Position numbers and translations under genes: made by a program. The notes below the pieces were generated by a model. The model searched no databases. It saw only the letters and a list, made by a program, of their open reading frames with translations, and was not told where the DNA came from. Positions 1,704 through 23,686 of a stretch of DNA of 25,397 nucleotides are shown piece after piece. The DNA is from a virus (Duplodnaviria; Caudoviricetes): positions 1 to 25,397 of IMG/VR virus record IMGVR_UViG_3300037296_000154. The stretch is one strand, 5' to 3'. Every line of letters starts with the position of its first letter. The stretch's first letter is position 1.

Positions 1704-2255
1704 TTATATTCCCGCCATGTCTAAATAGTTCGCTTCACGATTTCTTCGGCTGTGGTATCGGTCGCCAAAATCACGTAATTCGATAGCCATTTGATGCCAG
1801 TTTTGTTGCGTAGCGGCTCGCCAAAAGTTAGGGCAACGGCGGGCTAAATTGCCGTACTGAAACGCCACTGACGCTATAACCGTTTGCTGTTGCTCTTTTA
1901 GTAGATCAAAAGGCAATACAGAATCTCGGTTGTATCTATGCTGCAGTTGTTCAAGTAATTGGCTTTTAACGCACAAATCAATCAGATTTGCGTCATCTGG
2001 CGTTATTGATAGCGGCGTATCATGCAAGGCTGTTACTGCATCATGTTTAGTTAGTCCGCAATATGGTGCTAACTTCTGCACCAATGCTTGTGGTAAAAGC
2101 GTTTGCAAATCGTTAACTGAGCGCTGACCAAGATCAAAGCCGGTGGCAATAGTGACGCCCGATTTTGAATACTTAGGATCAGGTACATAGCCGGTGCATG
2201 TTGGGCCACCTTCTAATCCTGAAATAAAGCCAAAATTTACTTTTGTTTTATTCAT
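1704..2255 (-). CDS. Endolysin, pesticin C-terminal-like (T4-lysozyme-fold) muramidase
   Basis: Motifs FISGLEG...GYVP...SGVTIATGFDLGQ and QTVIASVAFQYG...RRNREANYL typical of pesticin-domain muramidases. Confidence 0.85.
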   Translation of the reverse strand: MNKTKVNFGFISGLEGGPTCTGYVPDPKYSKSGVTIATGFDLGQRSVNDLQTLLPQALVQKLAPYCGLTKHDAVTALHDTPLSITPDDANLIDLCVKSQLLEQLQHRYNRDSVLPFDLLKEQQQTVIASVAFQYGNLARRCPNFWRAATQQNWHQMAIELRDFGDRYHSRRNREANYLDMAGI

Positions 2256-4697: not shown

Positions 4698-5179
4698 AAA
4701 TCACCCGTCTTTTGCTGTACGTCTACGGTTTCAGCAATGTTTAATGGCACTAATGACACGCGATAACGTTCGCCGTTAAATATTACTGGGCCTGTTTCGT
4801 CGGGTATTAAGTCAATGTCATCTATTAGCTGCAGCTCTATTAATACTGTCGCGTGGTCTTTGCTTACCACGTCAATATCCAGTTGCGGATCATCTAGGCC
4901 GTATTCGTCACGTTGCCAATTGCTGTCAATTAAAAAGGCAGCAACCATGGCTAACAGGTTGTAAGGGTTAACGCGGCGATGCGGAAAACGTTCTAACGCA
5001 ATCACGGCGTTGTGTTTCCACTTAGCCACTTGATAACCGTCATTACCTTTGTCTTCGCCGCTTAATATTAAGGTGCCGTTTTCTTGCCAAGCGTCGAGAT
5101 CATTGGCTTTTACTAGCGGTGACAAGCTAGCCAGCAAAAACTCGGCTAATTGTTGTAATTGGGTTTTTGTCTGGCTCAT
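4694..5179 (-). CDS. Tail completion protein (P2 gpR-like)
   Basis: 161 aa, between head completion and gpS-like genes; HNAVIALERFP motif. Confidence 0.7.
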   Translation of the reverse strand: MSQTKTQLQQLAEFLLASLSPLVKANDLDAWQENGTLILSGEDKGNDGYQVAKWKHNAVIALERFPHRRVNPYNLLAMVAAFLIDSNWQRDEYGLDDPQLDIDVVSKDHATVLIELQLIDDIDLIPDETGPVIFNGERYRVSLVPLNIAETVDVQQKTGDL

Positions 5180-5637
5180 AGCGAATGCACCCCGGCTCGG
5201 CCAAGGCCAAGCAGTAAACGAATGGCGCGGGTTGATTGCGCTAAAATGGCGTCTTGCTGGGCATCATCTTGGGCTTTGTTGTTGCCTGCATCTTTTTGGT
5301 CAACAGCAGAAAAATAGCCCAGCAAATCGGCATGAGAACGGGCATAAACAGCCCCGCGATAAATGCTAATTTGCTGCTCGCTGAAATCAGGAGCTAGGCT
5401 GGCGCCTAAGGCAAAAGTGACGTCCTTGTCGGTCGCTGCTGGGGATGTTACATAGTTCAAAAGTTGTTGCTGTACTTCGGCCACACTGCGGTTAAGCGAA
5501 TCGGCTAATACCGCCTCTTCAAAAAATTCAGGTATGCGGCGATGCTGGCGAAATTCGCCAGTTGACAGTGCAGGCCAGCCGCTATCTGTGTCGATAGCCA
5601 TGCTTGTTTGTTGTCCTGCGTCAAATCCAAAGCTCAT
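5176..5637 (-). CDS. Head completion/stabilization protein (P2 gpL-like)
   Basis: GWPALSTGEFRQHRRIP, YRGAVYARSHADLL, C-terminal AIRLLLGLGRAGVHSL. Confidence 0.85.
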   Translation of the reverse strand: MSFGFDAGQQTSMAIDTDSGWPALSTGEFRQHRRIPEFFEEAVLADSLNRSVAEVQQQLLNYVTSPAATDKDVTFALGASLAPDFSEQQISIYRGAVYARSHADLLGYFSAVDQKDAGNNKAQDDAQQDAILAQSTRAIRLLLGLGRAGVHSL

Positions 5638-5750: not shown

Positions 5751-6545
5751 TTACGCTGGCTTTTGGCCAACTTGTTGCGAACCGCTTTCTTTAGAGCCAA
5801 TCTCTTGTGAGCCATAGGCCTCTAACGCACGTATTCGCATTTCAATTTTGTTTCTAATGGTTTTCACCTGGGCATGCTTGTGCAAACTGGCGGCTTTTTC
5901 GAGTAACGCATCAGCCTGTTGTAGGCGCTCAATGTCGCCCACTTGTGTTGGTGCAATGTCGCCGTTTGTTGCTCTAAGTAGTGCCAAACCCGCGAATTTG
6001 TAAAACTTGGCGGTAACCGGTTCTGGCAGTTTCCAATCATGAGCCACGCGCTTAAACACCATGCTGAAATACGGTTCAATGCTGTGGCCGTTTTGCGCTT
6101 GCACTTCTGCCCAATCAAATACAGTGTCGGCAATAAAGCCGGGCCACTGGCGACGAATACTGCCCGCCATAGGTTGCCCCAGTTCGATAGCGCGAAACGC
6201 GAATTCAATAGCTCGGCTAAGGTCGCCAACATCAAACAACCAGATAGTGCAATAAGCGTAAATAGGATGATCATCTAACCTTTCCTTTTCGGTTTGAGCG
6301 TCTAGTTTTTCTAGATACTCGGTGACGATGGGCAACCACTTTGGCAGTAACACGTCACGTTTATGGGCTATCTTGTCGCTGCGTCTGGCAAAGGCTTTAA
6401 GACGTTTTACATCGTCCTCTAGCTCTATCATCTGCAAGTGCAAGCTGGGCGCGTATTTTGCGTTACCCGTTAGCCTTACTTTTTCGAGTTGTTTTTTGCT
6501 TTTTCGCTCTTCACGCCAGGCGAGGATTTTGGCGCCGCCGATGGC
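5751..6545 (-). CDS. Terminase small (endonuclease) subunit, P2 gpM-like; frame open upstream of the track start and probably entered by -1 frameshift
   Basis: LEDDVKRLK...KIAHKRDVLLPKWLP, IWLFDVGDL..AIEFA..AIELGQPM, WKLPEPVTAKFYK are gpM-type motifs. The frame is open from 6569; there is no ATG before 6431 and no SD before TTG 6443. Confidence 0.85.
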   Translation of the reverse strand, partial: AIGGAKILAWREERKSKKQLEKVRLTGNAKYAPSLHLQMIELEDDVKRLKAFARRSDKIAHKRDVLLPKWLPIVTEYLEKLDAQTEKERLDDHPIYAYCTIWLFDVGDLSRAIEFAFRAIELGQPMAGSIRRQWPGFIADTVFDWAEVQAQNGHSIEPYFSMVFKRVAHDWKLPEPVTAKFYKFAGLALLRATNGDIAPTQVGDIERLQQADALLEKAASLHKHAQVKTIRNKIEMRIRALEAYGSQEIGSKESGSQQVGQKPA

Positions 6546-7066
6546 TTTTTTAGTTCGCTGGTCGCTTGTTTAATATCGTTCGCAGCATTGGCAATGCTGT
6601 CGGCGCTATACGCTAAGTCACTGGCACTGTCATCGATGTTTGAGGCGCTTTGGTCAACCTTGTCGGCTGCATAGCTCACTGAGTCAGCGGCATTGTTCAC
6701 GCTATCAGAGGCTTGGTTAACTGAGTCTGTCGCGTCGTTAACAGATTCGGTAATGGCGGTAATATTTCCGGCATCATCCGTGGTAATTTGTGCGGTTACG
6801 GTTTTGTCATCACCATTAGCTGGATCAAAATAATGTGGATTTTCGGCAAACATGTGCACTTCATCATCGACAATGTGCAGGCCTTTACCTACAAACGCTT
6901 CTGCTGCACCGATAGCTAATTCGTTAGAGCAATTGAACAGTTTGCCTAATAACCAAAGCGCTTCATTTTCTGGTGCTGGTGCTGGTACTTTGACTTTTTC
7001 AACATTTTTTTGTTGAGTGCGATTTTGTTGTTCACGACGTTTTTTAAAATTGGCAATGGCTGACAT
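6476..7066 (-). CDS. Heptad-repeat (coiled-coil) protein; probable N-terminal part of a frameshifted terminase fusion
   Basis: ATG with GGGA SD upstream; about nine 7-residue repeats (SVNDATD SVNQASD SVNNAAD SVSYAAD...) ending at CTA AAA AAG. Confidence 0.75.
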   Translation of the reverse strand: MSAIANFKKRREQQNRTQQKNVEKVKVPAPAPENEALWLLGKLFNCSNELAIGAAEAFVGKGLHIVDDEVHMFAENPHYFDPANGDDKTVTAQITTDDAGNITAITESVNDATDSVNQASDSVNNAADSVSYAADKVDQSASNIDDSASDLAYSADSIANAANDIKQATSELKKPSAAPKSSPGVKSEKAKNNSKK

Positions 7067-7094: not shown

Positions 7095-7188
7095 TGCTAG
7101 GCACTCATTGAGTGCCTAGCAATAAGGTTAAACCGTTGGTGCTAGGCACTCATTGAGTGCCTAGCAATAAGGTTAAACCGTTGGTGCT
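7095..7188. repeat. Exact 45-bp tandem duplication, each unit carrying a 27-bp perfect palindrome
   Basis: TGCTAGGCACTCATTGAGTGCCTAGCAATAAGGTTAAACCGTTGG at 7095-7139 and 7140-7184, then TGCT (7185-7188). Confidence 0.97.
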
Positions 7189-8201
7189 GCGCCAATATTC
7201 ATTGCAGCTTCATCGATTGCGCCGTATGCCTGCATTTCATCAACGGCATACCCTTCAAAGCGCCAATACTTGTCTTCCCAACGCTTACGGTCTTCTACGT
7301 TTTCAGACTTGCGTGAGCGGGTGCCTTTTTGGGTGTAGCAATGCAAGTTAGAAAGCAATGTCACCACTAAGCGTTTACCTGGGAAGAACGGCGGCGTGTA
7401 AGCGCGTAAACCACCAATCGATTTATCCATCATTTGCGCGGCAACACGTTCACTTGGCTTATCAGCTTGGTTCATCAACTTAGTCTGAGCGGCTGCGGTT
7501 AAGTCACTGCCAACTAATACAACCAAGCGTGGGTCGTTGCGGAATTGTTCAGGGATCAAGGTATTTTTAATTTCGGTAACAATGGCGTCTAGCGTTTTGT
7601 ATTCACCATCTTTCAAAACACCTGTTGCATCAGGGTTAAAGTAGATGGCATCTGTCATCACTTGGTCTGGCGCTTTGGTTTTAACTAATTGATGCCAGCC
7701 GACGTTAACGTCTTGGCCTAGCGGATTAGCTGTAGGGTCCGTGTCTGCTGCGGCAGAAGTACCATTAAAGCCAATGCGTAAAATGTCGAGGGCAAAACGC
7801 ATAGTGGCGTTTTCACTCATCAATTTCATGAATTGACGTTCACTGCCTGCATTGGCCCATACAGCTAATGTGCCCCAATCGACAAAGGCACAAGAGTCAG
7901 TTTCGACCAGTTCATAGGTATTACCGTTAACACCTTGCCCAGTAGTAAAGCGACCACCAGACTTACGCCCTGTGGCAATGCCTGTGTTACCTACGCTAAC
8001 GACTTGGCCTTTAATTTGGTCAACATCCATTGTGGTGATCAGTTTTAGAAACTCGACTGAATCAAGAATGGCGGCGCGCAGTTTGGTTTCCATTGGGCCA
8101 GTAACGCTAAATTGCTTACTCACGTCTGGTGTTTGATATCCGGTTGCCATGTTGCTGCTATAGGCAAGCAAACAGGCTAGTGCAATTGGTGTTAAATTCA
8201 T
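7173..8201 (-). CDS. Major capsid protein, P2 gpN family
   Basis: KQFSVTGPMETKLRAAI...FLKLI, ALDILRIGFNGTSAA..TDP..NPLGQDVNVGW, PPFFP...LSNLHCYTQ. Confidence 0.95.
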   Translation of the reverse strand: MNLTPIALACLLAYSSNMATGYQTPDVSKQFSVTGPMETKLRAAILDSVEFLKLITTMDVDQIKGQVVSVGNTGIATGRKSGGRFTTGQGVNGNTYELVETDSCAFVDWGTLAVWANAGSERQFMKLMSENATMRFALDILRIGFNGTSAAADTDPTANPLGQDVNVGWHQLVKTKAPDQVMTDAIYFNPDATGVLKDGEYKTLDAIVTEIKNTLIPEQFRNDPRLVVLVGSDLTAAAQTKLMNQADKPSERVAAQMMDKSIGGLRAYTPPFFPGKRLVVTLLSNLHCYTQKGTRSRKSENVEDRKRWEDKYWRFEGYAVDEMQAYGAIDEAAMNIGAAPTV

Positions 8202-11158: not shown

Positions 11159-12171
11159 CCGCGGCGAACGACGAAGCCGTGAACGACGCGGATCAACCAA
11201 AAATTAATAAACCTGTGGTGTTCAGTTTGCCCGAGCAAGTGATGCCTAATATGTGGCTAACTGATTACGACTCGCTTTATTACAACTCAAGCGACGAATA
11301 TTGGGAACCGCCGATTGATAGACAATTACTGGCTAACCTTACCCGTCGTAATGCCCAGCATGGCGGCATAGTGCAAAGCCGCGCCAATATGGCCGTGTCT
11401 CGTTTTGTGTCGGGTGGTATGAGTGCTCAAGAAATGGGTGCAGCGCTTTTAAACTGTGTACAGTTTGGTGACGTGGCGTTGTTGAAAATTCGTAATGGCT
11501 TTGGTCAGGTTGTGCGGTTATTCCCGCTGCCCAGTTATCGCAGTCGTGTGGGTAAGGATGGCGGCGCGGTGGTGTTAGAACGTGACCAACAATTTAAGCG
11601 TTACAAGGCTAAAGATATTATTTGGGTTCGTCAGTATGACCCTGTGCAACAGGTTTATGGTTGCCCCGATTATTTAGGCGGTTTGCAGGCAGCATTGCTC
11701 AATGAAGATGCCACTTTGTTTAGACGCAAATATTACATCAACGGTGCCCACATGGGTTTCATCATGTATGCCACTGACCCGAACCTAGACCCTGATGTTG
11801 AACAGGATATCAAAGAGAAAATTCAAGATTCAAAAGGCGTGGGTAACTTCAAATCACTGTTTGTGAATATTCCCAACGGTAAAGAAAAAGGCTTGCAGAT
11901 TATCCCCGTGGGTAATTTTGAAAGTAAAGACGAGTTTATGAACGTGAAGAACGTGTCGGCACAAGACGTATTAAATGCTCATCGTTTTCCGCCTGGCTTA
12001 GCCGGCATTATCCCCGCGAACACTGCTGGCCTTGGCGACCCTGCAAAATATGACTTGGTTTATTTTAAAAATGAGACTCGACCGCTGATTAACAATTTTG
12101 TCAATGCGGTTGAACGTGACCCAGAAGTTGGCGGCAAGTTAAAATTGGTTTTTGATATGGAATCAAATTAG
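11140..12171 (+). CDS. Portal protein, PBSX/P2 gpQ family
   Basis: [74 protein letters not shown]. Confidence 0.96.
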
Positions 12172-12879
12172 CTTAGAAATTTTGGCCACTCCATAGTAAT
12201 CAAATAAAAATAGCGGAAAACCGCTCAATACAGCCACATCGCCGGCAACAATATGTTTTTCTTTTTGTTTCATAAATATTTGGGCAGAAGGTAATAAAGT
12301 TGTTGGCATACAATATTCATCATTCACTAAATAATTAGCTTTTTGTAAGTTTGCAGAAATCAAACGTTTCCAACTATCTATTTTTAATGTTGTAAGATTT
12401 AAAAAAACTTTATCACCCTCTCTACTAGTAATACCTTTATATGATTTCCCTAATGATATTTTAGACACTAGATTTTGATAAACACTTAAGTCATCTAAAT
12501 GTCTTAAAGACTCTACCATAGGATAACTTATATAAAGTTTTCCCTTTTCTGTTTCCTCATTAAAAAAATCAAGCATATTCTGTAATTTCACATTACATGC
12601 TGTTGGTACATGCCCGTCATAATCAAAAAACAAATATATTTCAGCAATATCTGAAAAATCGATATGTTTCAGGATTTCCTTATTTTGGGATCTTTCCTTT
12701 AATATATAAAAAAGCTCTAAATCTTCATCTTTCTGCAAGGTATGATATAAGCTATAAATTTCCCCACAGAAAACACCAACGATTACAGTAGCATCGTTGA
12801 AAAAATGTTGTGCCATGCTTCTCTTTATACAAACTTCTGTCTTCTCGCCCTCAAAGACGAACAATATTGTATTAGTCAC
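12163..12879 (-). CDS. TOPRIM-like / RloB-like partner of the ATPase (putative anti-phage effector)
   Basis: GTG start overlapping the ATPase stop; ILFVFEGEKTE (TOPRIM conserved Glu), IYLFFDYDGH (DxD), LYISYPMVE (RloB-like SNPxFE position); AT-rich. Confidence 0.65.
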   Translation of the reverse strand: MTNTILFVFEGEKTEVCIKRSMAQHFFNDATVIVGVFCGEIYSLYHTLQKDEDLELFYILKERSQNKEILKHIDFSDIAEIYLFFDYDGHVPTACNVKLQNMLDFFNEETEKGKLYISYPMVESLRHLDDLSVYQNLVSKISLGKSYKGITSREGDKVFLNLTTLKIDSWKRLISANLQKANYLVNDEYCMPTTLLPSAQIFMKQKEKHIVAGDVAVLSGFPLFLFDYYGVAKISKLI

Positions 12880-13987
12880 CGAAAGAACCTGCTCTGTACA
12901 TTTTTTCAATATTATGAGCTTCTCTCAAATCTTTAGAAGTACTATTTGACAGAGATTCGATACCACTTTCTTTCAATAGAAAATAACAATCAGGTCTTAA
13001 AAGCTCGTTAGTCATAACAGATGTGTTGTGACTAGTGATCACAACTTGCGACTTTATCTCACGTAATCTTTTAATAATAGCTTCTGATAATGAATGGTGA
13101 TAAAAAGCATCAAACTCATCTATAAATAGAAAAGTTACTTTTGATTCACTACCTCTGAGCCTTTGTAACCAGAAATAAAACAATGCTAAAGACTTAGTCC
13201 CTTGAGATGCTATCTCATAAAAAGGGATTAGTTTTGAACCAAATGAAAAAGCTAAACCAGGTTTATCCGTTTCTTCAATTACTTCAAGTTTACATTTTAC
13301 TCCAACTTCATTAAGAAATGATTCGAAATCTTCTACATTTTTTCTTTCAACTATGTCTCCAGTTATAGTAGTTGACCCTTGTTCAAATCCAATATAATTA
13401 TTTTGTTCTAAAGATCTAAAAAAAAGCATTCCATTAACAAATTCAACAAACTTATAAAAACATTTATTCGTATCATTAGGTGTGAGTACTGTATTTTTTT
13501 TAATGTATGAGACTATGGAAATCTGTGAATCACCGATATCCCTAACTAAATTCTCTGCGCCATCAATATTAAAATTTGCTATTGTGTTTTTATTTCTATC
13601 TATTGCAGCAAAGAGCACATCATTAATATAAAGAGATTCCGAAATTAAAGTTTCTTTATCGCTTTTACTATACTCATATTGGACATTTCCGCAGTCAAAT
13701 CGAAAGTTATATTTGAACCTTGCAAATCCAGAGCTATTTTTTGCATTCAAGAAATTTGAATATCCCGATGAACCAGGATGCTTATCCGTCAAATGGCTAA
13801 TCAAATCTAAGAGGGCAAAACCCAAATTAGATTTCCCGCTTCCATTATGTCCATAAATCAAACTTTTATTAACAATATTATTTTTTACACAGTCAGTATT
13901 GAATGCGTAGTTGTTAGTTTTAGTAAAATCAAATACAAACTTTTTTTCAAAGTTTTTAAAGTTTTCGACTTCAAATCTAGCTAACAT
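12872..13987 (-). CDS. ABC-type AAA ATPase (AAA_21 / RloA / AbiLi-like)
   Basis: MLARFEVENFKNF start with GGAG SD; Walker A GHNGSGKS, signature-like ASQGTK, Walker B LFIDEFDAFYH, H-loop ITSHN, LLRPDC. Confidence 0.88.
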   Translation of the reverse strand: MLARFEVENFKNFEKKFVFDFTKTNNYAFNTDCVKNNIVNKSLIYGHNGSGKSNLGFALLDLISHLTDKHPGSSGYSNFLNAKNSSGFARFKYNFRFDCGNVQYEYSKSDKETLISESLYINDVLFAAIDRNKNTIANFNIDGAENLVRDIGDSQISIVSYIKKNTVLTPNDTNKCFYKFVEFVNGMLFFRSLEQNNYIGFEQGSTTITGDIVERKNVEDFESFLNEVGVKCKLEVIEETDKPGLAFSFGSKLIPFYEIASQGTKSLALFYFWLQRLRGSESKVTFLFIDEFDAFYHHSLSEAIIKRLREIKSQVVITSHNTSVMTNELLRPDCYFLLKESGIESLSNSTSKDLREAHNIEKMYRAGSFGD

Positions 13988-14046
13988 TACTGTACTCCAA
14001 GCGATTTTGTACTCTATTAGCTCGGATGATATCATAAAAAAATCAC

Positions 14047-21657: not shown

Positions 21658-22587
21658 ATGTCCGTGGAAAGCGCTGTTGTTATTTGGCAAGGTAAGACTA
21701 AAGACATTGAATTTAGCTATACCGATTTTAAAGGCAATAAATCCCGAAGAAATATAACTGTAAACAAAGTGCTATTTGATGAAGATAGTGAAAACTTTTA
21801 TATCAATGGTATTTGCAAGGAACGCCAAGCAGAAAGAGACTTTAAAGAAAGTAATATTTCTACCATGATCAAAGTTGGCTCTAACAGGTATGACTTTCAA
21901 GAGTGGATGATTACATTAAATGTTGATACTTCTGAATGGTTAGATAAAAGCAATAATATAGCTAACAGCGAACATGTAGATGTTCCCAAAGAAAAAATAA
22001 GCTTTGCGGCTAAAATTGAAGATCATAACCGTAAACAGCAAATCAAACTTGATGAACTAAAAGCAAGTAAACCAAATACGAATATGTTTTTGAAAGTGCT
22101 ATTTTGGGTTGGTGTATTTATTGCCCCTTATATATTCGCGTGGTTTACATTGCGTAAAGGTAATTCAACTAAATCAAAAGTTATTGCGTTCGGATGGTTA
22201 GCTTTCTTTGCCATTGCTTATCTCAGTTCCCCTGAAAAAAATCCGGATGATGTAACGGCTAAAATAGGTGATAAAAAAGAGATAGAATGCAAGCAAACCC
22301 TGACGTGCTTGGCAGAAAAGCACATTATTTATGCTGGGGCTATTTGCCAATCACCTATTGAACGTTTATCTAAATATACTTACGAATGGACTGACGGTTT
22401 TGCTACGCCTCGCTTTAGTCATTACCGCTGGGTGAATCAGTCAAACGGCATTATCACTTATATCGGTGACCAAATAAAAATGCAAAATGGTTTTGGTGCG
22501 TGGTCCCATTACACCTATGAATGTGATTTCGATACGATAAATAAGACTGTTGTTGATGTTCGTGCAACGCAAGGCAGGATTCAATAA
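21658..22587 (+). CDS. WYL-like domain + 2 TM helices + Cys-containing C-terminal domain
   Basis: IEFSYTDFKGNKSRRNITV...YINGICKERQAERDFKESNI (WYL pattern); hydrophobic FLKVLFWVGVFIAPYIFAWFTL and VIAFGWLAFFAIAYL; C-terminal C..C..C..QNGFGAW..YECD; AAGGA SD. Confidence 0.7.
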   Translation: MSVESAVVIWQGKTKDIEFSYTDFKGNKSRRNITVNKVLFDEDSENFYINGICKERQAERDFKESNISTMIKVGSNRYDFQEWMITLNVDTSEWLDKSNNIANSEHVDVPKEKISFAAKIEDHNRKQQIKLDELKASKPNTNMFLKVLFWVGVFIAPYIFAWFTLRKGNSTKSKVIAFGWLAFFAIAYLSSPEKNPDDVTAKIGDKKEIECKQTLTCLAEKHIIYAGAICQSPIERLSKYTYEWTDGFATPRFSHYRWVNQSNGIITYIGDQIKMQNGFGAWSHYTYECDFDTINKTVVDVRATQGRIQ

Positions 22588-22652
22588 TTTAAATGTCAAT
22601 TACAAACACCAAAAACGCATATCCTGTATTTTTATAGTAGAGATGTAACCAA

Positions 22653-23234
22653 TTGAGCATAGAAACCCTATTTTCATCAAAAATCATAGTTCCAATTGTC
22701 GTCGCGTTTATTGGCTTTTTAGTCGCAGTAACGACAGCCGTCATCGCAAAAGAACACAAAATATCTGAATTTAGGCAAAAATGGATTGATGATATAAGGT
22801 CTGATTTAGCTATTGCTCTACAAAGTTCATACGACTGTTTATATGAACTTCATAATCCATCGACCATAGAGAGTGTTGAGAAATATAATGTATCTTATAG
22901 AGAGTTAGAATTTAGGTGTAACTTAATAATAATCAAGCTTAACCGTAAAAAAGACGCTGTATTTATTGAGCTAATTAGAACACTTCTTAAAGAGCTTTTT
23001 GTGGTTTCCCAAGATACTACAGATCTAAATAGGCAAAGCTGCCAACAAACAGCTACACAGTTTCAGAAAATGAGTCATGACCTCTTAAAGAATGAGTGGG
23101 AAAGAGTAAAAAAAGGGGAAAAACATTTTCTGATATTTAGAAGTTTTGGCGAGTTATGCTTATTTGCATTTGTCACAGCTTTCTTGATCATACTTGCAGT
23201 ATCTAAGTTCCCTGAATACTTTCTTATTACATAG
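22653..23234 (+). CDS. Hypothetical membrane protein (N- and C-terminal TM helices)
   Basis: IIVPIVVAFIGFLVAVTTAVI, then KEHKISEFRQKWIDDIR, and LLKNEWERVKKGE before a C-terminal TM; AT-rich. Confidence 0.7.
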   Translation: MSIETLFSSKIIVPIVVAFIGFLVAVTTAVIAKEHKISEFRQKWIDDIRSDLAIALQSSYDCLYELHNPSTIESVEKYNVSYRELEFRCNLIIIKLNRKKDAVFIELIRTLLKELFVVSQDTTDLNRQSCQQTATQFQKMSHDLLKNEWERVKKGEKHFLIFRSFGELCLFAFVTAFLIILAVSKFPEYFLIT

Positions 23235-23260
23235 ACAACTTGATTGTTGGAGTACGAAAA

Positions 23261-23686
23261 TTGCCAATAAGTTATTCACCCAAAGTTGGACAAATCTTGA
23301 TGTGTGATTTCACAACTGGATTTATCGAGCCTGAAATGGTAAAAAAACGTCCCGTCATTATATTAGCAACAAGACCTAACGGTCATAAACTGGTTACCGC
23401 GGTTTGTTTGAGCACTGTCAGACCTGAACCACAGCAACCTCACCACATGATTTTAGATCAAGCTCACCTACCTAAATTAAAGTTTTTCGAATCAGGTAAG
23501 GAAACTTGGGTAAAAGGAGATATGATTTACTCTGTTAGTTTTGACAGGCTTGAGCTTATTTCGATGGGAAGAGCTGGCGGTAAGCGAGTTTATTTTATTA
23601 ACCGCCTTAGCCGAGAAACAATGAGGGAGGTATATAGTTGTGCTCTCAATGGTTTAAACCTCGGAAAATTAAGTCAGCACCTTTAA
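23261..23686 (+). CDS. PemK/MazF-family endoribonuclease toxin-like protein (orphan)
   Basis: PKVGQILMCDFTTGFIEPEMVKKRPVIIL...LVTAVCLST...WVKGDMIYSVSFDRL; TTG 23261 with GGAG SD (track start 23240). Confidence 0.85.
   Translation: MPISYSPKVGQILMCDFTTGFIEPEMVKKRPVIILATRPNGHKLVTAVCLSTVRPEPQQPHHMILDQAHLPKLKFFESGKETWVKGDMIYSVSFDRLELISMGRAGGKRVYFINRLSRETMREVYSCALNGLNLGKLSQHL

Follow-up and report, generated by a model that had tools for sequence, protein, structure and literature searches.

A slippery heptamer conserved across a lineage of P2-like phages very probably joins a predicted coiled-coil gene to the small terminase frame

Here we describe a -1 recoding signal, the slippery heptamer A AAA AAG, in a P2-like phage genome, where it connects a gene for a predicted coiled-coil protein (ORF1) with the frame encoding the small terminase (gpM). 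Judged by comparative sequence analysis, the signal is real, lineage-wide and strongly selected, and ORF1 and gpM very probably constitute one recoded gene from which the small terminase would be synthesized by -1 ribosomal frameshifting. The mechanism is already known in kind; the controlled gene and its coiled-coil partner are what is new.

The window (the whole stretch of DNA analysed, a 25.4-kb virus record) displays a P2/HP1-type gene layout, with integrase, repressor, cII, replication nickase, portal, and large terminase genes on the first strand, and scaffold, capsid, the ORF1/gpM locus, head completion, tail terminator, sheath, and tube genes on the opposite strand. Profile matches reveal gpN-M-L synteny at the locus, the features of which are as follows.

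7173..8201, minus strand: major capsid gene gpN, upstream in the same operon (phrog_70, E 2e-111; PF05125, E 3e-95)
7095..7188, minus strand: hairpin behind the capsid stop, present in two copies (7165-7140 and 7120-7095) within a 45-bp tandem duplication
6476..7066, minus strand: ORF1, 196 aa, 20.8 kDa, pI 4.9
6545..6551, minus strand: slippery heptamer A AAA AAG (site kept in 112/112 loci), then CC
6476..6544, minus strand: dual-coding stretch, comprising the 22-codon tail of ORF1 (frame 0) and the N-terminal helix of gpM (frame -1)
6525..6539, minus strand: GGCGG, then ATC 7 nt later; a candidate weak non-canonical gpM start, or plain Gly-Gly-Ala-x-Ile
5751..6551, minus strand: gpM small terminase frame with putative entry at the heptamer, 264 residues past the two lysines
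5176..5637, minus strand: head completion gene gpL, downstream (phrog_71, PF05926)

A strong stem behind the capsid stop, differing in sequence, was recovered in nearly all of the 45 gaps folded; its likely role is to shield the end of the capsid mRNA or to damp read-through. Relatives carry a single hairpin as opposed to the two of the window, and ordinary P2-like gpM loci leave no room for one. Rfam returned sub-threshold hairpin matches only, and promoter and terminator scans of the region gave hits at chance level only. Elsewhere in the window, a two-gene cargo after the portal gene (12163-14035, minus strand), consisting of an AAA ATPase and a partner, matches the candidate defence system PDC-M12A/B (E 3e-157 and 2e-83); a WYL-like membrane protein, a membrane protein without assignment, and a PemK/MazF-like nuclease are encoded between repressor and integrase (21658-23686, plus strand); and the gene in the lysis position (1704-2255, minus strand), which matches only PHROGs of unknown function (phrog_24780, E 1e-71), is possibly an unannotated type of endolysin.

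The ORF1 codons at 6553-6545 read CTA AAA AAG, which places A AAA AAG in the phase that suits a -1 slip. The -1 frame opens past the TAA at 6572-6570, six codons before the heptamer, and closes at 5751; a slip would yield a product of 438 aa, made up of 174 residues of ORF1 and all of gpM. These recomputed frames agree with an earlier note on this DNA, which had described a 196-aa ORF with an in-phase A AAA AAG at 6551-6545, a gpM frame opening at the same TAA six codons upstream, and a fusion of about 438 aa. Its assignment of the -1 frame to gpM is borne out by profile matches (phrog_74, E 9e-57; PF05944, E 4e-28, 98.4 bits against a cut-off of 29.4), the PHROG match beginning at residue 24 of the open -1 frame, before TTG 6443 (residue 43). 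While A AAA AAG occurs 20 times in the window, long open frames lie on both sides of this one only (178 codons upstream in frame 0 and 266 downstream in frame -1). The ORF1 stop (G AAA AAG TAA) was considered as a further slip site and rejected, since this motif is broken in at least 9 of 44 representatives.

Related loci were collected using protein queries and seed patterns that did not include the heptamer, together with six annotated phages. The resulting 219 sequences (218 loci and the window) comprised 217 that could be anchored, 138 of them distinct; L154 and L173 (no anchor) and L038 and L206 (which end short of the site) were left out before counting. There were 114 distinct loci with gpM at least 54% identical to that of the window, of which 112 (window included) span the site. 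All 112 carry A AAA AA(G/A) in phase, with G at position 7 in 110 and A in 2, and the spacing between heptamer and anchor is 102, 105 or 108 nt, i.e. it changes by whole codons only. ORF1 is open and in phase over 75-251 codons in the 108 loci where this was measurable, a stop shuts the -1 frame 1-41 codons ahead of the heptamer, and the first ATG, GTG or TTG of the gpM frame falls anywhere from codon 27 to 126, none being conserved. The earlier note had named two findings that would speak against its frameshift interpretation, namely relatives in which an extra A creates a single ORF, and independent initiation at TTG 6443 or ATG 6431. The extra A occurs in 0/112 loci, neither start is conserved among relatives, and heptamer and frame offset persist in divergent copies (112/112), so the interpretation is supported. 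Named relatives of the locus come from Shewanella, Rheinheimera, Alkalimonas, Colwellia, and Pseudoalteromonas, and the isolated phages C5a (Catalunyavirus) and PY3 share a layout identical to that of the window.

Outside this group the arrangement is different: an ATG sits 28-33 codons ahead of the anchor, immediately behind the capsid gene, in all 24 outgroup loci (gpM at most 50% identical), and none of the 24 has the heptamer at the site. A tree of gpM bodies (48 shift-type and 24 plain rows) splits the groups by one branch (100/99) and, being midpoint-rooted, is compatible with a single origin without proving it. An independent PF05944 search of the host order gave matches in 61 of 401 genomes, at 73 places; the 50 places inspected comprised 47 with an ATG of their own, 1 of shift type, 1 seemingly broken, and 1 too distant for the profile. 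A 408-codon open frame in one genome (G070) turned out to be an ordinary gpM whose upstream openness is due to chance.

No in-frame fusion of ORF1 and gpM was found in searches, weak ones, for longer proteins using gpM and an ORF1 alignment, and none of the 267 ORF1-profile matches listed has a gpM-profile match. Long ORF1-profile matches, considered as candidate fusions, proved to be generic heptad proteins (16 scanned). In a distant gpM group (L262-L265, L267), gpM is a single ORF with an N-terminal extension, and a short motif in that extension resembles one located midway along ORF1 (hhalign E 0.008, probability 5%). A further locus (L268, 1405-2349) contains a 314-aa gpM-like ORF among tail-like genes that has, in frame, both a basic N-terminal helix and an acidic helical segment; its architecture recalls that of the fusion, and homology to ORF1 was not detected.

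Substitutions were mapped on a tree of 107 shift-type loci with 9.2 changes per site in total (five loci with fewer than 200 gpM codons omitted). The first A of the heptamer underwent 0 changes while its codon underwent 22 (CTA, TTA, ATA, GTA, GCA); the fourth A likewise underwent 0 and the seventh base 2, compared with 4-18 changes in ten invariant gpM Lys columns and 15 in the Glu codon just upstream. In ORF1 as a whole, AAG accounts for 20% of Lys codons (AAA 80%) and ATA for 7% of Ile codons. Codon differences were compared among 44 representatives (<92% identity). The synonymous share before the site is 0.32 in frame 0 versus 0.08 in frame -1, whereas it is 0.14 versus 0.54 in codons 3-8 after the site and 0.12 versus 0.67 in codons 26-75. 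Coding constraint thus changes frame at the heptamer, as it should if this is where ribosomes pass into gpM. In keeping with the same frame, Ala7 of frame -1, upstream of ATC, is invariant in spite of 22 third-position changes.

The earlier note had also proposed alternative stems in the GC-rich segment 3' of the heptamer. This segment folds at -7.9 to -14.9 kcal/mol in the window, no better than shuffled sequences (z +0.6 to +1.3), and is not conserved in the 44 representatives: RNAalifold detected no conserved downstream RNA structure among them, single folds had a mean z of -0.11 against synonymous shuffles, and a scan for all helices downstream produced one 4-bp helix only at 80% pairing. 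The proposed stem is therefore not a selected element. Two other candidates emerged. The two bases following the heptamer are CC in 103/112 loci, the 3' context in which, according to passages of PMC5009743, A AAA AAG shifts most readily in E. coli. An SD-like signal 5' of the site, of -5 kcal/mol or better, is found in 43/112 loci versus 10% background (counts not corrected for the tree) and is weak in the window. Passages of PMC5009743 describe some tailed-phage frameshifts that act at low level without stimulators, and such motifs without stimulators shift weakly in E. coli, as stated in part of PMC4066793. With respect to decoding, one closed host genome with a shift-type prophage (the host of a relative) has at least seven tRNA-Lys genes, all UUU, among 98 tRNA genes found with 150 of 289 candidates scored.

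ORF1 consists of a basic N-terminal helix, a variable middle, an acidic heptad helix (about 109-172), and a basic Ser/Lys tail, and is preceded by SD-like GGGA 9-12 nt ahead of its ATG. No family was found for it in PHROG, in NCBIfam, or in Pfam above cut-off, and its mean column identity is 36%. In the 49 residues before the lysines, however variable the protein, one heptad position is a large hydrophobic residue in 93% and two others are Ala, and indels in the heptad region are of 7 or 14 residues. AlphaFold predicts a single 64-residue helix at 109-172, the rest of the model being uncertain (pTM 0.23); this helix and the heptad periodicity match the coiled coil that had been read from the sequence beforehand. 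Comparison of the model with viral structures gave no match, and the Atlas returned unnamed clusters only. The label methyl-accepting chemotaxis protein borne by some homologues was rejected, as PF00015 scores 23.3 bits against a cut-off of 34.6 and the likeness is that of generic heptads. The N-terminal helices of ORF1 and gpM, compared as possible duplicates, match at E 0.03 only.

Several features of the overlap concern the unshifted product. ORF1 tails of at least 19 codons are present in 43/44 representatives versus 41.5% expected, T-ending gpM codons make up 3.6% of the overlap versus 25% elsewhere in gpM, and the tail, as translated in frame 0 only, keeps clear of stops and hydrophobic residues, with KK at its end in 83/120 homologues. 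In a Pseudoalteromonas obscura contig (L070), a stop directly follows the heptamer, leaving no ORF1 tail, and T-ending codons amount to 5/22 in the overlap versus 29/926 (Fisher p 0.0007, drawn from one lineage only). Given the tail length, the codon bias, and its relaxation in L070, both products appear selected, the unshifted ORF1 product among them in its own right. The position of ORF1 behind the capsid gene and the conserved hairpin point to a role in head assembly or packaging. The shortest ORF1 (75 aa) is that of L155, the locus in which folding revealed no hairpin; together, the L070 and L155 variants mark the minimal parts.

The gpM model is predicted to be all-helical and TPR-like (pLDDT 81.7), with weak TPR matches only in the PDB (best E 5e-3). 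P2 gpM is needed for cos packaging with gpP, as described in part of PMC7552001, and by homology we infer that gpM would have this role here.

Whether gpM might be initiated on its own deserves closer weighing. The earlier note held that the gpM frame has no SD-supported start, and this is correct for ATG, GTG, and TTG; it does not hold for ATC 6527-6525, which lies behind GGCGG 6539-6535. Codon 9 of gpM is ATC in 108, CTC in 3, and ATT in 1 of the 112 loci, and GGNGG stands 7 nt ahead of it in 110/112. If gpM came mainly from this non-canonical AUC start as a 258-aa protein, the fusion would be minor or absent, and one could account for the single synonymous change in the ATC column (versus 11-16 in control Ile columns), for anti-SD pairing of -5 or better before ATC in 109/112 loci (versus 7% background), and for a position 27 codons before the anchor, near the 28-33 of ordinary gpM starts. 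An AUC start, however, leaves the invariant heptamer and Ala7 unexplained. Moreover, the heptamer is kept both in three intact loci with CTC for ATC (21-30 nt apart over 732 nt) and in two loci where GGNGG is missing; C occupies the central position of GGNGG in 79/112, which fits Gly codons and not an SD; and C-ending codons are favoured throughout the overlap and relaxed in L070, where the frame-0 tail is untranslated. The C-ending codons are attributable to the frame-0 tail. These observations together argue against the AUC codon as main route, which we regard as improbable. An AUC start that supplies minor free gpM beside the frameshift is less far-fetched, though still unlikely. IS911 uses both routes, a frameshift and a start of its own, the latter reportedly a non-canonical AUU.

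The remaining alternatives accept the fusion and differ in its origin or purpose, or dismiss it as an artefact. RNA polymerase could slip on A6 and add one A, such that the fusion would result from normal translation of a minority of transcripts; an A-run is indeed present in all loci, extends to A7 in 2/112, and would give an identical fusion protein. Polymerase slippage usually needs longer runs, and selection for it should lengthen the run, whereas the run is just six long and G-capped in 110/112 loci although AAA is the predominant ORF1 Lys codon (80%). A run so short and so capped disfavours this route, which is very improbable. The chance that the offset is a sequencing error, a recent inactivating indel, or a deletion scar in a decaying prophage is negligible: the window is one assembled contig, but the identical offset recurs in 112/112 loci drawn from collections of viruses, metagenomes, and genomes, and in two isolated phages, and no indel within 6545-6551 was seen among the contigs (not reads) of four runs, one of them perhaps the source of the window. 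Such conservation excludes error or decay. Lastly, the frameshift may be real and yet a mere dose limiter with the short product as by-product, an alternative of purpose only, its mechanism overlapping that of the best explanation. The variability of ORF1 (75-251 codons, mean column identity 36%) and the loss of its tail in L070 would fit, whereas the retained heptad register, with indels of 7 or 14 residues, and a tail that avoids stops and hydrophobic residues and has KK ends (83/120) would not, and we find this alternative rather doubtful.

Under the preferred reading, -1 ribosomal frameshifting, ribosomes would start at ATG 7066, and most would stop at 6476 and release the 196-aa predicted coiled-coil protein. 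A minority would slip by -1 on A AAA AAG, presumably through tandem slippage of two tRNA-Lys(UUU), and produce the 438-aa fusion, likely the main source of small terminase. The shift would be inefficient, perhaps at a few percent, as its sole candidate stimulators are the 3' CC and, in some members of the lineage, the 5' SD-like sequence. Its purpose is probably to keep gpM scarce at a set ratio to an abundant partner, in the manner of lambda G/GT. By analogy with such systems, the short protein may self-associate via its heptad helix and bring the rare fusion to the packaging or prohead complex, a proposal to which we give slightly less than an even chance. More speculatively, and with a distinctly smaller likelihood, the packaging module might have been rebuilt on G/GT logic, in which an abundant coiled-coil protein forms an oligomer, a rare frameshifted copy displays the small terminase on that oligomer, and the site is tuned without RNA structure, perhaps by ribosomes pausing 18 nt downstream at the SD-like/AUC element, which might also yield free gpM.

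ORF1/gpM would work like the tail assembly chaperone G/GT family and is not a member of it. Lambda G/GT and P2 E/E+E', according to passages of PMC5009743 and PMC3091744, link an abundant short product and a rare C-terminally extended one by a conserved heptamer, at low level and often without a stimulatory structure, as ORF1/gpM is predicted to do. G/GT, however, are chaperones encoded between the tail tube and tape measure genes, whereas the present locus lies between gpN and gpL and its -1 frame is an entire small terminase; the P2 E/E+E' heptamer is T TTT TTG and not A AAA AAG. E. coli dnaX and IS3-family elements (IS911) share A AAA AAG and a single tRNA-Lys logic, but rely on a 5' SD and a 3' structure, of which the former is partial here and the latter is not conserved, and in dnaX the shift truncates the product where here it would extend it. 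The gpM proteins of P2/HP1 type (PF05944, phrog_74), such as those of K139, phiO18P, and SMHB1, are homologous (39-45% identity) and share the order N-M-L, but each is encoded by a single ORF whose ATG immediately follows the capsid stop, with neither the hairpin-plus-ORF1 insert nor the heptamer. T7 gene 10 and Lactobacillus phage A2 likewise make a pair of head-region products that share their N-terminus; in those cases a structural protein gains a domain through the shift, whereas here the capsid gene ends normally and a separate gene would shift.

The closest printed case, going by part of PMC10732093, is the recoding proposed in a gene for terminase in the Streptomyces phage Hau3. It affects the large subunit and consists of UUA-triggered bypassing of 10-nt inserts within the gene (3/100 genes), whereas in the present lineage the small subunit would be reached by a -1 slip throughout, alongside a distinct short product that appears to be under selection. 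Searches of the open full-text literature turned up no account of frameshifting in gpM or in a small terminase. This literature includes PMC10885494, PMC10612066, and PMC6211511, in the accessible portions of which no small-terminase frameshift appears; the word terminase is absent from PMC3711429 (article text plus one of its two supplements), and the word frameshift from the accessible portions of PMC9611059 and PMC13100340.

If the reading holds, a small terminase would join tail chaperones and virion proteins among the phage products made by frameshifting. The lineage includes cultivable isolates (C5a and PY3) and many Shewanella prophages, and gpM would be annotated too short in both isolates (176 aa in C5a and 178 aa in PY3, versus 242 residues after the shift), just as homologues of ORF1 are unlabelled in annotations or mislabelled as chemotaxis protein. 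The locus may offer a handle on small terminase dose in a P2-like phage and on the question of an N-terminal tether that gpM may tolerate or put to use; its relatives would constitute a set of naturally occurring A AAA AAG sites maintained without a 3' structure.
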